This document shows, one piece after another, positions 17,757 through 27,636 of a stretch of DNA of 64,000 nt (position 1 is the stretch's first letter; each line of letters opens with the position of its first letter). The position numbers and the translations under genes are program-made. The DNA is from Podarcis liolepis (lineage: Eukaryota): NCBI GenBank assembly GCA_965112155.1, contig OZ218104.1. One strand, 5' to 3'. Under the pieces are notes generated by a model. It worked only from the letters and a program-made list of their open reading frames with translations, made no database searches and was not told where the DNA came from.

Positions 17757-17929
17757 ATGCACCTCTTGTTCAGGTTGTGTGTCGTCTTCAGTGCCTCCTT
17801 TTGCCTCTGCTCAGGGACAGATGCCTCTCCGGATCTCATCACTTCCCTGCCAGGACTGTCTGAGATGCCAACCTTCCAGCAATGGTCCGGCTACCTCCAG
17901 GCAGGATCTGGCCAATACTTCCATTACTG
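17757..17929 (+). CDS. CTSA-like exon 1
   Basis: [64 protein letters not shown]. Confidence 0.9.
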
Positions 17930-20900
17930 GTAAGCAGAGAGAGAGAGAGAGATTGAGTTAATATTCATGTCTCCTCTTCATTGAACTGTTCATTGCTTTT
18001 GGGTATGTGCTGGCCGACCTATGCATGCTTCCACTTGCTCATTAAGAGCTAAAAAGCTAATCCTGGCCATGACACATTGCTAACATCCAGGCAACAGCTG
18101 CTTCATGGACTTCCACCATTGGTGGCAGCAGCAACACTTCTGAATGCCAGTTGGTGGAATGTGCAGGAGGGCAGAGCACTCTTGTGTTTGGGTGTTGTCT
18201 GCAGGTTTTCCTTGGGGGCATCTGGTTGGCCCCTGTGAGAGCAGGATGCTGGGCTAGATGGGCCCCCTTGGGCGTGATCCAGCAGGCTCTTCTGATGTCC
18301 TTTGGTCTTGCTAACCATTTGTTGAAATTGCCTTTGCCAAGATGTTCTGGATGAGCCGCAGTTTACAGAAACGTTTATGCTTCTCTACTGCCCTGGAACC
18401 AGCTGTGTGGAGCAGCCTAAGAATAAATTGGTTGCTTAGCTTGATTGATGGATTATAGTAATTTGTGTCTTCCCTTTACAGGCACAAATTCCCCCCAAAG
18501 CAGCTGACAAATAAAGTCAAAGTGCAATAACAATAAGACCATTATGTAAACAGAAGCTGTTTCATTTCTGGTGGTGATTCATGTCCCTGCAGAGGGGCGG
18601 GGGTGGGGGCAGGAGGGAGGCAGGTCCAGTAGGAACAGGCTGCCATGTTGTATGTTGTAGTTCCTTGCCTGCCTCTCTCCTGGATTCCTGCCCATAGGGT
18701 AGCTGCATGGAGGAAAACGTTGATTCAGTGGGGGTTGGTTCACTAGCGTAAATGAAGCACAGCCCCACCAACCTTCGCCATGTCACAACTGCCTGCCTTA
18801 TGATATACAACGGGCCCAGGGAGTGGCCCTGCTTGCCACCTTCCTCTTCCTCAGTCTCAGGGTTGATCTTGTAGAACTCACATGGGAGGAAGATGGGGAC
18901 AAAATTTTCTGGCGCTGGCTGTGGCTCCACCTCTCTCTGCCTACCATTAACCTCTCTGCCTTCTGCTCCACTAGTCCCACAGGGAACACCACATTTATTT
19001 ACACCCCCAATGATGATGCTCCTGTTCCATGTTCCCAATGCAGCCCCTCACCCAGCACAGGCATGCTTAGCTGTAAGACTGCTACAACATCAGGCAGAGG
19101 CAGTTTTTGGGTGGCACAACCAGAGCAGTCACACTGGGTGCCACACTGCAGGGTTCACCAAAACAATGCTGTAGAACAAAGCATAAGAGGCGAGATTGCA
19201 CCAAATATTAGTGTCACACAGGGCGCCACTGAAATTTGAGAGCCCAAAGTCTGCTACTGCATCAGGTATCTTCCTCGGGTCTCCATTCTTTGGGCCTCCT
19301 CTAAACATATCCATCAGGGTGTTTGCTCTCTCCCTTTCTATCCTGACAGGTTTGTGGAGTCTCAGGGCAACCCAGCGACTGACCCCGTGGTGCTCTGGCT
19401 AAATGGGGGACCAGGCTGTAGTTCCATGGAAGGCCTCCTGGCTGAGAATGGACCTTTCCATGTGAGTCTGTGGCCGCTCTGTATGCTGATGGGAAAGGAG
19501 AGAAACATAGGACAAGGAAGGGGTTGTGGATCAGGCAGTTGGGGCTCAACTGGGCCTGAAGCTCTTGATCTCATCTCAAAGTTGTGGAGGCTGCCTGGGA
19601 TCATTCTGTCAGGAGGGAAAGGTGCTCTATACAGGCGCAGAGGCAACATTATTTACTTACTGTAAGATCACCAGCGCCAGGTGCAAAGGGGCTCTATGTT
19701 GTTTTAGTTTTGCCCAAAGTTGTTGAGATTTGGGGATTTTCTCATACATTTGCCTGATTTCTGCCTGGACACTTCTGCTGACTGCAGTATTCTGTTTGTG
19801 TCCGGGAGAATCTGGATGTATAGCAATCCTGCAATAATGCCCAGACCAACTCACAGATGCCTGATTTCTCAAGGACTGGGAATCTGAGACTGTGCTTGGA
19901 GGCAATTGATATGGAAGATTTAGTGAACAGCATGCTGCAAATACCTCACATGCCCAAAGTAACCCTCTTTGTCTGCCTCATGGTTTTGTGTAGCTGAATG
20001 ATGATGCAACACTCTACCTGAACCCCAACAGCTGGAACAAGGTAGCCAACGTGCTTTACATGGAATCTCCGGCTGGAGTTGGCTATTCCTATGCCACAGA
20101 AGACAGCCCTATCAATGACAGCCAGGTAGGTCACTTGCTGTTCGTTCCTGGCCTAAGGGACGCATTCTCTAGTAAACAAACCGGGGGTGAGGCATATCAC
20201 ATGCCAGTGGTGAGTGGGGCAATAATTGGAATGGTGATGGTACCAGCTGATCAGGGAAGGTTGTCAGTCCTGTGGCAGTAATATAGGGCAGAACCACACT
20301 ATACATCATCATCATCATAATTAATTTGTACTCCACCCAACTGACTGGGTTGCTCCAGTCACTCTGGGCAGCTTCCAACAGAGTATAAAAGAACACGTGA
20401 TACATCAGACATTAAAAGCTTCCCAATACAGGGCTGGCTTCAGATGTCTACAGAAGTCATATAATCGTTTATATCTTTGACATATGATGGGAGAGTGTTC
20501 CATTGGGTGAGTGCCACTACCAAAAAGGCTCTCTGCCTGGCTCCCTGTAGGTTCACTTTTTCAAAATGAGGGAACTGCCAGAAGGCCCTCTGAGCTGGAC
20601 CTCAGTCACAGATTTAAAAGTGCCAGTGCACATTTACGTAAACCATACGACTTCCCCTAAAGAATCCTGGGAATTGTAGTTTGCTAAGGGCACTGGGAAC
20701 TGCAGTTCTTTGAGAAAGAAACTACAATTATCAACATTCTTTGGGGGAGCCATGTGTTGTAAATGTGCATTGGCTGTGCCTTAAATGTATGGCATGGTTC
20801 TATCCAGAGGCAATATAGACTTCCTACACAGCTGCCTGGGCTGTGAGGGATCAGCTCACAAAAGTTTGTAAGTATTGTTGGGACAGAATCCATTTGCCTT

Positions 20901-26900: not shown

Positions 26901-27636
26901 TTGTTTAGCGTAACTGTGGTTTGTCTGAACATGTGAAAACATATCAGCAAACTAGCCTGTTTATTTTCTATCAGCAAATGACAATGTGAAGCCATGGCTT
27001 GGTATTGGCTTAAAAACCATGGTTTATTCTAACTACGGTTTAACATTACTTATGAACCTAACAACCCTGCCTAACTATGGTTGTTTTCCCTACCTGTTAC
27101 CCCAGATGCTCCTCAAGCTTGAGAAGGCATGACACAAGAGTAGCTAGAAAACAAAATAAGATCTAAGCAGGTGTGGGGAACCTTTGGCTTGCCAGCTGTT
27201 GCTGAACCACCACTCCCATCAGTCCCAACAAGCATGGCTAATGGTGAGGGGAGTTGTAGTTCAGCAACAAATGGAGGGCCACGGTTTCCCACACCTGCTC
27301 TAAATAAACAATACATGGCTTGTTTGTTAAATAACATTAACCCCAGTTTGTGTGAAAACACAGCCAATATATGATTAATTGCACACACATTATCAAGACA
27401 GCACTGGCGAAAAGTTACTTTCTCTCCTGCCTCTTCTTGCTCTGCTCAATATAAGCTTCCAGTATCCTTCACGAGTTTTGGGAAGGGGAAAATTATTTCA
27501 GATGTGCTTTCTCAGCTCTTTTCTAAAGCATCTTCCCTCTCATATATAGGGTGCTGGTCACATGGTTCCACAGTATAAGCCTGGACAAGCTCAGAAGATG
27601 TTTGAATGCTTCCTCTCCAAAGCCAGCTACATCTGA
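17757..27636 (+). CDS. Cathepsin A-like / lysosomal protective protein-like serine carboxypeptidase (peptidase S10), spliced CDS, 456 aa
   Basis: join(17757-17929,19350-19461,19994-20125,21111-21269,21689-21780,22356-22440,23228-23377,23678-23805,25276-25438,25779-25868,27550-27636) = 1371 nt. No internal stops; all introns GT-AG. Signal-peptide-like N-terminus. Motifs [31 protein letters not shown] (catalytic Ser), [10 protein letters not shown] (Asp), TVKGAGHMVP (His). Confidence 0.95.
19350..19461 (+). CDS. CTSA-like exon 2
   Basis: [43 protein letters not shown]. Confidence 0.95.
19994..20125 (+). CDS. CTSA-like exon 3
   Basis: [50 protein letters not shown]. Confidence 0.93.
21111..21269 (+). 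CDS. CTSA-like exon 4 (catalytic Ser)
   Basis: [39 protein letters not shown]...INLK|GTAAAC. Confidence 0.95.
21689..21780 (+). CDS. CTSA-like exon 5
   Basis: [36 protein letters not shown]. Confidence 0.93.
22356..22440 (+). CDS. CTSA-like exon 6
   Basis: [34 protein letters not shown]. Confidence 0.93.
23228..23377 (+). CDS. CTSA-like exon 7
   Basis: [56 protein letters not shown]. Confidence 0.9.
23678..23805 (+). CDS. CTSA-like exon 8
   Basis: [48 protein letters not shown]. Confidence 0.92.
25276..25438 (+). CDS. CTSA-like exon 9 (catalytic Asp)
   Basis: [60 protein letters not shown]. Confidence 0.94.
25779..25868 (+). CDS. CTSA-like exon 10
   Basis: [36 protein letters not shown]. 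Confidence 0.94.
27168..27297. mobile_element. hAT-type palindromic MITE
   Basis: TIRs CAGGTGTGGGGAACC / GGTTTCCCACACCTG; GGGAGTTGTAGTTC core. Confidence 0.8.
27550..27636 (+). CDS. CTSA-like exon 11 (catalytic His, stop)
   Basis: [37 protein letters not shown] at 27782 is a possible polyA signal. Confidence 0.94.
   Translation, partial: GAGHMVPQYKPGQAQKMFECFLSKASYI

Follow-up and report, generated by a model that had tools for sequence, protein, structure and literature searches.

A 64-kb stretch of Podarcis liolepis DNA (hereafter the window) contains a gene of the S10 serine carboxypeptidase family at positions 17757-27636 of the + strand, with 11 exons, 456 codons and an intact Ser-Asp-His triad. 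This raises the question of whether the gene is cathepsin A (CTSA) at an unusual location or a different member of the family. The neighbourhood of CTSA is PLTP/NEURL2, whereas the flanking genes are here an Aa_trans-family transporter and CNOT1. The other vertebrate S10 peptidases are CPVL and SCPEP1 and, to our knowledge, human-centred catalogues contain these three enzymes only. To these, the window gene adds a fourth vertebrate lineage of S10 enzymes, here termed “CTSA-like” and distinct from CTSA; its product is probably an acid carboxypeptidase that forms dimers, lacks the protective-protein function and possibly serves in bulk lysosomal protein digestion. The new elements are the reclassification and the functional prediction, as the enzyme class, the fold and the machine annotation were already known.

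Gene structure and neighbourhood

The features of the window are the following:
6028..12778, + strand: upstream neighbour, Aa_trans-family transporter (approximate coding span; 3 of 4 tested exons match the family)
17600..17756, + strand: putative promoter and 5' UTR, CpG-poor
17633 and 17675 (GATA-type sites) and 17700 (TATA-like GATATAAG), + strand: elements of the putative promoter
17757..17929, + strand: coding part of exon 1, with the start codon in a strong Kozak context and the signal peptide
17757..17929, + strand: within exon 1, the N-terminal loop similar to the GLB1-binding loop of CTSA, with L27/E36/Q41 replacing E34/K43/R48
19350..19461, + strand: exon 2, NGGPGCSS (N76, C81) and E90; Pfam match, E 5e-18
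19994..20125, + strand: exon 3, 10-residue motif and sequon N136
21111..21269, + strand: exon 4, GESYGG with E168 and the catalytic S169
21689..21780, + strand: exon 5, GNG motif, start of the cap domain, predicted dimer contacts
22356..22440, + strand: exon 6, cap-domain C232, C233, C238 and C248; sequon N239
23228..23377, + strand: exon 7, C273, a segment resembling the blocking peptide and the shortened maturation loop; the exon through which the Podarcis protein was found
23678..23805, + strand: exon 8, C312, conserved sequon N314, WELC
25276..25438, + strand: exon 9, catalytic D380, C383, sequon N396
25779..25868, + strand: exon 10, short W-to-Q spacer of the lineage; F415 and K428, which are dimer residues in CTSA
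27550..27636, + strand: coding part of exon 11, catalytic H432, Q436-Y437 (T-D in CTSA), stop codon
27782..27787, + strand: candidate polyadenylation signal ATTAAA
30700..64000, + strand: downstream neighbour CNOT1, continuing past the window (PDB chains, E 6e-32)

The coding exons (173, 112, 132, 159, 92, 85, 150, 128, 163, 90 and 87 nt) are spliced into a CDS of 1371 nt, corresponding to 456 amino acids followed by TGA, with no internal stop, and all 10 introns have a GT donor and an AG acceptor. Judging by the exon labels of published mutations, human CTSA has an intron within the span of exon 3. The translation contains the cysteine and glycine motifs GPGC (78), CC (232), ASCWGG (271), PHCIN (310), WELC (340) and MACN (381), and the triad motifs GESYGG (167; S169), NGDVD (376; D380) and GAGH (429; H432) in the order seen when aligned against the human and mouse CTSA chains. 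The hydrophobic N-terminus (approximately residues 1–18) is a signal peptide, and there is no membrane anchor. A preliminary description of this DNA had placed the intact gene at exactly the right coordinates, and every motif it listed, with the triad, the four sequons (N136, N239, N314 and N396) and the signal peptide, is present; its “456-aa ORF” is correct in length and motifs, but consists of 11 spliced exons and not of a single reading frame.

Seven of the 11 exons match PF00450 (Peptidase_S10) singly, six of them above the curated Pfam cut-off, and with a profile built from relatives all 11 are found again in order, so that the assignment to S10 is far beyond chance. A second S10 copy (a B-type partner) or a remnant of one was searched for throughout the 64 kb using tblastn with nine proteins and the same profile; only the 11 exons were matched, the next best hits having E-values of 0.5 and 2.1, respectively.

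The protein is identical at 452 of 456 residues (4 differences) to P0001, a Podarcis muralis protein named “lysosomal protective protein-like”. The window gene is the P0001 gene, already machine-annotated across many vertebrates. The P0001 model is 488 aa long and begins 32 codons upstream, at ATG 17661, which is probably too early. This in-frame ATG is unlikely to be the main start, since the signal peptide would be buried; it also precedes the TATA-like site, and the orthologues begin instead at the position equivalent to 17757. The observed/expected CpG ratio of the promoter is 0.22, compared to 0.66 and 0.96 at the promoters of the neighbours, and CNOT1 has a CpG-island promoter near 30.3-31.3 kb. 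A scan of 17400-17760 gave two GATA sites where 0.81 are expected, which is not significant, and no match to strict TATAWA, HNF1, HNF4, FOXA or CLEAR. Regarding the neighbours, which the preliminary description had given as SLC38A7 and CNOT1, the latter is confirmed by the PDB chains, while a PDB search to name the upstream transporter returned chance armadillo-repeat matches only. Its family is established, and it is presumably SLC38A7.

Phylogenetic position and taxonomic spread

The alignment comprised 24 rows of clade A, which includes the window gene, 29 of clade B and 29 of CTSA, and trees were built without an outgroup and with CPVL and SCPEP1 left out. Clade A has a support of 100/100, clades A and B together with a protein from the hemichordate Glandiceps are separated from the rest at 100/99, and CTSA groups with the lampreys at 97/96; amphioxus and the hemichordate Ptychodera also join the CTSA side. 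Grouping A with CTSA is rejected by the AU test (p=1.5e-6), as is placing P0001 inside CTSA (p=0.003), and the gene is therefore, as had been proposed, a paralogue and not a moved CTSA. Echidna, Astyanax and Cololabis are each represented on both sides. A later duplication within the lineage, probably beside SLC38A7 and in the early history of jawed or bony vertebrates, gave rise to copy A, found in amniotes, bichir, gar, bowfin and several basal teleosts, and copy B, found in sharks, lungfish and ray-finned fishes. As to the date of the A/B split, a grouping of A with the bony-fish B sequences is not quite rejected (p=0.052). The A-type and B-type proteins of bowfin come from contigs of the same listed size, which hints at synteny.

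The split between CTSA and CTSA-like is ancient, as the preliminary description had it, and probably predates the vertebrates, a date that rests on the single Glandiceps protein. The whole-genome-duplication origin suggested earlier fares less well: the CTSA-like gene would then be an ohnologue of CTSA and the hemichordate placement an artefact, which we regard as improbable. With Glandiceps included, vertebrate monophyly is rejected (p=0.00025), and the Glandiceps protein, encoded on a 28-Mb contig, sits on a short branch (0.35) at the well-supported node given above. Of 13 diagnostic columns, it agrees with A/B in 10, and its W-to-Q spacer is short like theirs; Ptychodera agrees with CTSA in 9 of these columns and amphioxus in 8, and both have the longer CTSA-type spacer. 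The gene also has 11 exons, compared to 15 in human CTSA. Once Glandiceps (and 13 thinned rows) are taken out, however, the test no longer rejects vertebrate monophyly (p=0.163), and the support for CTSA with amphioxus and Ptychodera is only 80/75. No amphioxus, echinoderm or cyclostome protein is named on the CTSA-like side among the matches listed. That the gene could be the lizard's only CTSA, relocated, is hardly credible: although no squamate true-CTSA protein occurs among the 120 rows listed, the window protein is 46–50% identical to the 29 true CTSA sequences and 58–78% identical to clade A, its placement inside CTSA is rejected as stated above, and stickleback has the same locus, with a “CTSA paralog” beginning 4.5 kb from SLC38A7 (PMC4256280, Table 3).

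The gene had been thought to be kept in reptiles and lost in human. The first part proved too narrow, as named mammalian proteins account for 14 of the best 120 matches listed. Thirteen species are represented, namely two monotremes, eight marsupials, two afrotherians and one xenarthran, with elephant, sengi and armadillo among them; those proteins put into the trees fall in the same clade as the window gene. The preliminary description would have been contradicted by an intact mammalian orthologue at this position; mammals do keep orthologues, and the result concerns their presence and not their locus. Its second part agrees with the data, since no boreoeutherian orthologue was found among the 100 species-named matches listed, although boreoeutherians do occur in the same database (18 true-CTSA rows of the 120 listed). 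The named CTSA proteins were reached through a query found in a search of 1.84 billion representatives. Neither CPVL nor SCPEP1 is named among the best 120 relatives. The orthologues of alligator, anole and platypus carry the plain name “lysosomal protective protein”. Among the papers listed in a literature search, with subscription journals outside its scope, none deals with the CTSA-like subfamily, its phylogeny or its loss, in line with the earlier view of an uncharacterised function.

Catalytic core, predicted dimer and GLB1-binding residues

The catalytic Ser and Asp are present in 24/24 and the His in 23/24 of the clade A sequences, and all three in 29/29 of clade B, while N76, E90 and E168 are invariant in the alignment. 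Nine cysteines are common to CTSA-like and CTSA proteins (at least 23/24 of A, 29/29 of B and 28/29 of the CTSA rows); in CTSA they pair into four disulfides, and the one that follows the catalytic Asp stays unpaired. The AlphaFold model (mean pLDDT 77, pTM 0.80) is predicted to have an alpha/beta-hydrolase core and a cap domain, and its best structural matches are cathepsin A (7KDV and 1IVY; E 7e-52, 48% identity), followed by yeast CPY and Kex1. A homodimer was predicted with a score of 0.87 (best control 0.00, contacts agreeing at 93% or more, pLDDT 90), but the CTSA dimer, which forms through the cap and small-subunit surface, is already solved and the prediction may reflect memory of it: the same mark was reached by 21/30 solved microbial dimers, 0/23 monomers and 17/29 eukaryotic dimers (7/16 for animals), and by only 1/7 dimers without a solved relative. 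Three positions at which mutations weaken the CTSA dimer have their counterparts in the predicted interface. In CTSA, an excision peptide is taken out during maturation, leaving two chains. The maturation loop is modelled at low pLDDT and is 38 residues long (median 39 in clade A and 50 in CTSA), that is, about 11 residues shorter, with two basic residues and no dibasic site; dibasic sites are found in this loop in 3/24 clade A sequences vs 16/29 of CTSA.

The core salt bridges between CTSA and GLB1 involve E34, K43 and R48 in a mouse/human interface modelled at ~4 Å, and substitution of K43 impairs the complex (PMC8115914). The window protein has L27, E36 and Q41 at these positions, K43 being replaced by a glutamate of opposite charge. 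K43 is a lysine in 29/29 CTSA sequences, 0/24 of A (acidic in 19) and 0/29 of B, and all three residues are kept in 25/29 CTSA and 0/53 A and B sequences. Since the salt-bridge residues are replaced, the CTSA-like protein should not bind or protect beta-galactosidase, and it seems, from these residues, to be without a GLB1 protection role, lizard GLB1 being outside the comparison. A redundant second protective protein in the lysosomal multienzyme complex, serving GLB1 and/or NEU1, the latter of which CTSA binds and activates, would fit the fold, the cysteines and the predicted dimer, all matching those of CTSA, and NEU1 makes contact with CTSA's small subunit (PMC8115914), a surface outside our residue comparison. 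Given the three changed residues, one of them charge-reversed, and the loss of K43 from all 53 A and B sequences, we nevertheless consider such a role very unlikely.

Possible role and relation to known carboxypeptidases

In the reading we favour, the signal peptide would direct the protein to the ER, where it would be N-glycosylated, form four disulfides and dimerise in the manner of cathepsin A. As a zymogen, with the loop C273-C312 covering the active site until clipped, the dimer would then arrive in an endolysosomal compartment of acid pH; after clipping, the S169-D380-H432 triad could cut C-terminal residues off peptides at acid pH. With no GLB1 binding or protection, as the sequence suggests, the enzyme would be a catalysis-only cathepsin A, and its most plausible role would be bulk protein breakdown in lysosome-rich cells.

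A secreted enzyme of the same lineage and chemistry, digesting food peptides or inactivating peptide hormones outside the cell, be it in the gut lumen, in plasma or in tissue fluid, is a less likely alternative that has some points in its favour. There is a signal peptide with no membrane anchor, and the CpG-poor promoter with its two GATA sites hints at tissue-restricted expression, although two such sites per 120 nt occur in 20/533 tiles, so this hint is weak. The N-terminal-domain glycan of CTSA carries the lysosomal tag, and the corresponding sequon, N136, is present in 27/29 CTSA vs 1/24 A and 0/29 B sequences, so that lysosomal targeting is not assured. The other sequons N239 (2/24) and N396 (4/24) are also rare in clade A, but N314 is kept in 23/24 and would still be available for tagging. 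Against secretion also stand the invariant buried carboxylate pair E90/E168, which is linked to an acid pH optimum, and the acidity of clade A (pI 5.4 or below in 23/24).

Clues to function come from fishes. Zebrafish si:ch211-122f10.4 is presumably a member of the CTSA-like family and would in that case probably be copy B. It is a probe-reactive carboxypeptidase distinct from ctsa and cpvl (PMC9786740). Among the entries listed, lysosome-rich enterocytes show enrichment for it (adjusted p 5e-26 and 2e-35; PMC11906160) and likewise for ctsa and cpvl, and the signal may therefore be generic for lysosomal genes. A 2026 teleost survey gives ctsa as single-copy (PMC13664112). In stickleback, ENSGACG00000015897, “cathepsin A”, is a copy-number variant (PMC4256280, PMC6735750), and its expression in the spleen and the head kidney (PMC6735750) counts against the role favoured here; from the B-type motifs of two related sticklebacks, it is probably copy B.

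A broader scenario, tentative and rather doubtful at present, is that deuterostomes had a protective CTSA and a catalysis-only lineage for dietary or yolk/milk protein, acting in intracellular digestion in lysosome-rich gut cells. The latter would have persisted in fishes, squamates, crocodilians, monotremes, marsupials, afrotherians and xenarthrans but disappeared in the boreoeutherian (rodent/primate/laurasiatherian) ancestor, and perhaps separately in birds, turtles and amphibians. If true, it would provide a natural experiment separating the two functions of cathepsin A and, for Boreoeutheria, a gene loss usable as a clean marker, and would identify the top lake-river copy-number candidate of stickleback. 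The boreoeutherian loss is a testable prediction. An enzyme that is catalytic without binding GLB1 would part the two functions that galactosialidosis research must disentangle, and many expression or selection results for non-mammalian “CTSA” may concern a different gene, the fourth lineage being masked by a common database name.

Compared with CTSA/PPCA (PDB 1IVY and 7KDV; family S10), the window protein has the fold, the triad, the carboxylate-binding residues, the nine cysteines and the N314 site in common, and its dimer surface is predicted to be alike. It differs in belonging to a separate, more acidic lineage, in its replaced GLB1-binding residues, in the Q-Y following the catalytic His (T/S-D in CTSA) and in a W-to-Q spacer of 4 residues vs 7–9. 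CPVL and SCPEP1 belong to the same Pfam family. The names in use in databases (“lysosomal protective protein-like”, “cathepsin A-like”) do not tell CTSA, copy A and copy B apart. A described counterpart by position is the stickleback “cathepsin A”, an S10 gene adjoining SLC38A7, as the window gene presumably does, which has been read via the function of mammalian CTSA (PMC4256280, PMC6735750).

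Gene model and locus

The cathepsin A (CTSA)-like gene, which encodes an S10 serine carboxypeptidase of 456 aa, lies on the plus strand at exactly the coordinates first proposed, 17757–27636, with the ATG at 17757 and the TGA ending at 27636. With the junctions fixed on the window sequence, it comprises 11 exons and 456 codons without a stop, GT-AG bounds all 10 introns, and every motif listed in the preliminary description, together with the four sequons, was found in the spliced model. Seven of the 11 exons singly match Pfam Peptidase_S10, and a profile from 98 named relatives recovered all 11 in a search of the window, where it found no other S10 piece; the encoded protein is a member of the S10 family. 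Exon 7, used as query, yielded six proteins out of seven candidates; the top one, ‘lysosomal protective protein-like [Podarcis muralis]’, agrees with the model at 452 of 456 positions, and its database model has 32 more upstream codons. The gene is thus already machine-annotated. The 488-aa database model begins at an in-frame upstream ATG (window 17661–17756), which places 32 residues ahead of the signal peptide; this start is probably a mis-start.

As regards the proposed flanks, CNOT1 was confirmed downstream, while the upstream neighbour was identified as an Aa_trans transporter (three of four exons tested), presumably SLC38A7. The human gene order is presumably GOT2-SLC38A7-CNOT1, and CTSA is assumed to be PLTP-linked. 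The promoter of the CTSA-like gene is CpG-poor, unlike those of both neighbours, a weak hint that its expression may be tissue-restricted. Human CTSA has 15 exons (PMC3737020), and the exon labels of human CTSA mutations would be compatible with several introns common to the lizard gene and imply about three that are absent from it. The window also contains the following features.

27192–27515 and 39095–39871: last part of intron 10 in the CTSA-like gene and its copy in a CNOT1 5' intron (72% identical, E 6e-59)
36693–36896: 204-base assembly gap in the CNOT1 region
56907–57042, plus strand: SNORA50, an H/ACA snoRNA within an intron of CNOT1 (Rfam, 140.6 bits)
7460–7598, 27166–27311, 35974–36113 and 39059–39215: copies of a palindromic MITE-like short repeat
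12259–12349: 46-nt tandem repeat, two copies, within a late intron of the Aa_trans transporter gene

In the CNOT1 5' intron copy, the start of exon 11 is matched at 17/17 positions after a SINE-like insert of about 350 nt, with matching spacing; as judged from its sequence, this copy of the intron 10 end and exon 11 start is a decayed partial duplicate. The assembly gap probably hides the start-codon exon of CNOT1: the N-terminal motifs of CNOT1 were not found in the three forward frames, and the next exon lies at about 42558. Between the two genes, the stretch 28070–28640 reads by eye as a decayed retrotransposon fragment.

Phylogenetic placement and date of the split

A tree without outgroup was built from 48 named proteins: 14 from clade A (the CTSA-like gene and its orthologues), 10 from clade B (its sister copy), 12 CTSA and 12 invertebrate sequences. 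Rows that were unnamed, partial or multi-domain were excluded, as were many near-redundant ones, and the groups were set after an exploratory tree and database names. Clade A (support 100/100) holds the window's P. muralis orthologue and unites amniotes with bichir, gar, bowfin and basal teleosts; clade B, its sister (92/84), comprises ray-finned and cartilaginous fishes as well as lungfish. The true CTSA sequences, among them those of two lampreys, form one group (97/96) adjoining amphioxus and the hemichordate Ptychodera (94/88), and a branch with 100/99 support sets clades A and B, together with a second hemichordate, Glandiceps, apart from all other sequences. Echidna, Astyanax and Cololabis are each represented on both sides. 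The AU test rejected clade A with CTSA (p = 1.5e-6); a grouping of clade A with bony-fish B narrowly escaped rejection (p = 0.052), and A and B may have split before or after sharks. The gene is not an orthologue of CTSA, and its description as an intact ancient paralogue was right, the 11 exons being stop-free and placement of the P. muralis protein inside CTSA being rejected (AU, p = 0.003).

It had further been suggested that the gene may be a copy of CTSA from a genome duplication. With Glandiceps included, a single vertebrate clade of A, B and CTSA is rejected (AU, p = 0.00025). At 10 of 13 diagnostic columns Glandiceps carries the A/B state, and its W-to-Q spacer is short, as is typical of A/B, while Ptychodera and amphioxus show the CTSA state at 9/13 and 8/13, both with the long spacer. 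When Glandiceps and 13 other rows are removed, however, vertebrate monophyly is no longer rejected (p = 0.163), and support for CTSA with amphioxus and Ptychodera falls to 80/75. A genome-duplication origin is probably wrong, and a pre-vertebrate split is preferred.

Species distribution and possible local duplications

A word-based search of a database clustered at 90%, with the alligator orthologue as query, was evaluated for the best 120 of 2863 matches, 100 of them species-named. These include five from reptiles (squamates and alligator; 73–79% identity, the query itself excepted) and 14 proteins from 13 mammals at 56–70% (platypus, echidna, eight marsupials, elephant, sengi and armadillo), so that the supposed restriction to reptiles is wrong; the remainder are mainly fishes, with a single hemichordate protein (Glandiceps, 56%) and a single one from a nematode. 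Among the 100 species-named rows of these best 120, boreoeutherians, birds, turtles and amphibians are all absent. Within the limits of a word-based, clustered search, the boreoeutherian absence is meaningful, since 18 true-CTSA rows from boreoeutherians (and two amphibian rows) occur among the 120 listed by a further search of the database. No bird, turtle or squamate, and so no separate squamate CTSA, was seen among those 120 rows, and the bird and turtle absence from the CTSA-like matches therefore says less.

Within the window, the lizard locus has copy A alone and no copy B. In bowfin, A- and B-type proteins lie on contigs of equal size (3,092,723), which suggests local duplication. The data also suggest further local duplications of clade B in cartilaginous fishes. 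Two clade-B proteins on equal-size contigs are seen in white shark (P0037/P0051), catshark (P0042/P0065) and manta (P0039/P0060). In stickleback, the start of a ‘CTSA paralog’ lies at groupII 11,736,098 and that of SLC38A7 at 11,731,640 (PMC4256280). Among copy-number genes this paralog shows the strongest lake-river differentiation, its expression in spleen and head kidney tracking dosage (PMC6735750). This published ‘cathepsin A’ gene beside SLC38A7 probably belongs to the CTSA-like lineage, not to CTSA. A teleost survey calls ctsa single-copy (PMC13664112), and among the papers listed by our literature searches none was seen to describe the CTSA-like subfamily.

Catalytic residues and comparison with cathepsin A

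S169, D380 and H432, along with N76, E90 and E168, are conserved across clades A and B (H432 in 23/24 of A); in S10 enzymes, residues of the N76/E90/E168 type serve carboxylate binding and the acid pH optimum. Nine cysteines match CTSA, and cathepsin A is the best structural match of the AlphaFold model (pLDDT 77, pTM 0.80), whose N-terminal extension and maturation loop are of low confidence. When two copies were modelled together, the score was 0.87 and that of the best control 0.00, with contact agreement of at least 93% and pLDDT 90. The same threshold was passed by 21/30 microbial dimers, 0/23 monomers, 17/29 eukaryotic dimers and 1/7 without a solved relative, and the pass may reflect structures that the predictor had memorised because the CTSA dimer is solved. 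The predicted interface contains the counterparts of M424, F458 and K471, positions with an effect on dimerisation in CTSA. On the evidence of its residues, the protein should work as a peptidase like cathepsin A.

We take zebrafish si:ch211-122f10.4 to be a member of the CTSA-like family. It is a 51.5-kDa carboxypeptidase listed apart from ctsa and cpvl, and was recovered with a serine-hydrolase activity probe from 12/12 probe samples and 0/12 controls (PMC9786740). Both data sets of PMC11906160 show it enriched in posterior lysosome-rich enterocytes, and one of the two does so for anterior lysosome-rich enterocytes as well, with ctsa and cpvl enriched in the same cells; among the entries covered, it was enriched neither in ileocytes nor in anterior enterocytes.

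Compared with CTSA, clade A proteins are more acidic and have a shorter maturation loop (median 39 vs 50) with fewer basic residues, and Q-Y instead of T/S-D follows the catalytic His; N314 is the only sequon kept across clade A. For mapping CTSA numbering onto the PDB alignment a 28-residue offset was assumed, which fits the numbering of the GLB1-CTSA structure paper. By this alignment, E34, K43 and R48 of CTSA are replaced by L27, E36 and Q41. All three form core salt bridges in the GLB1-CTSA complex (PMC8115914). K43 is present in 29/29 CTSA and 0/53 A and B proteins, and the loss of these contact residues in A/B is derived, since Glandiceps retains all three. The CTSA-like protein is probably without the protective function of CTSA.
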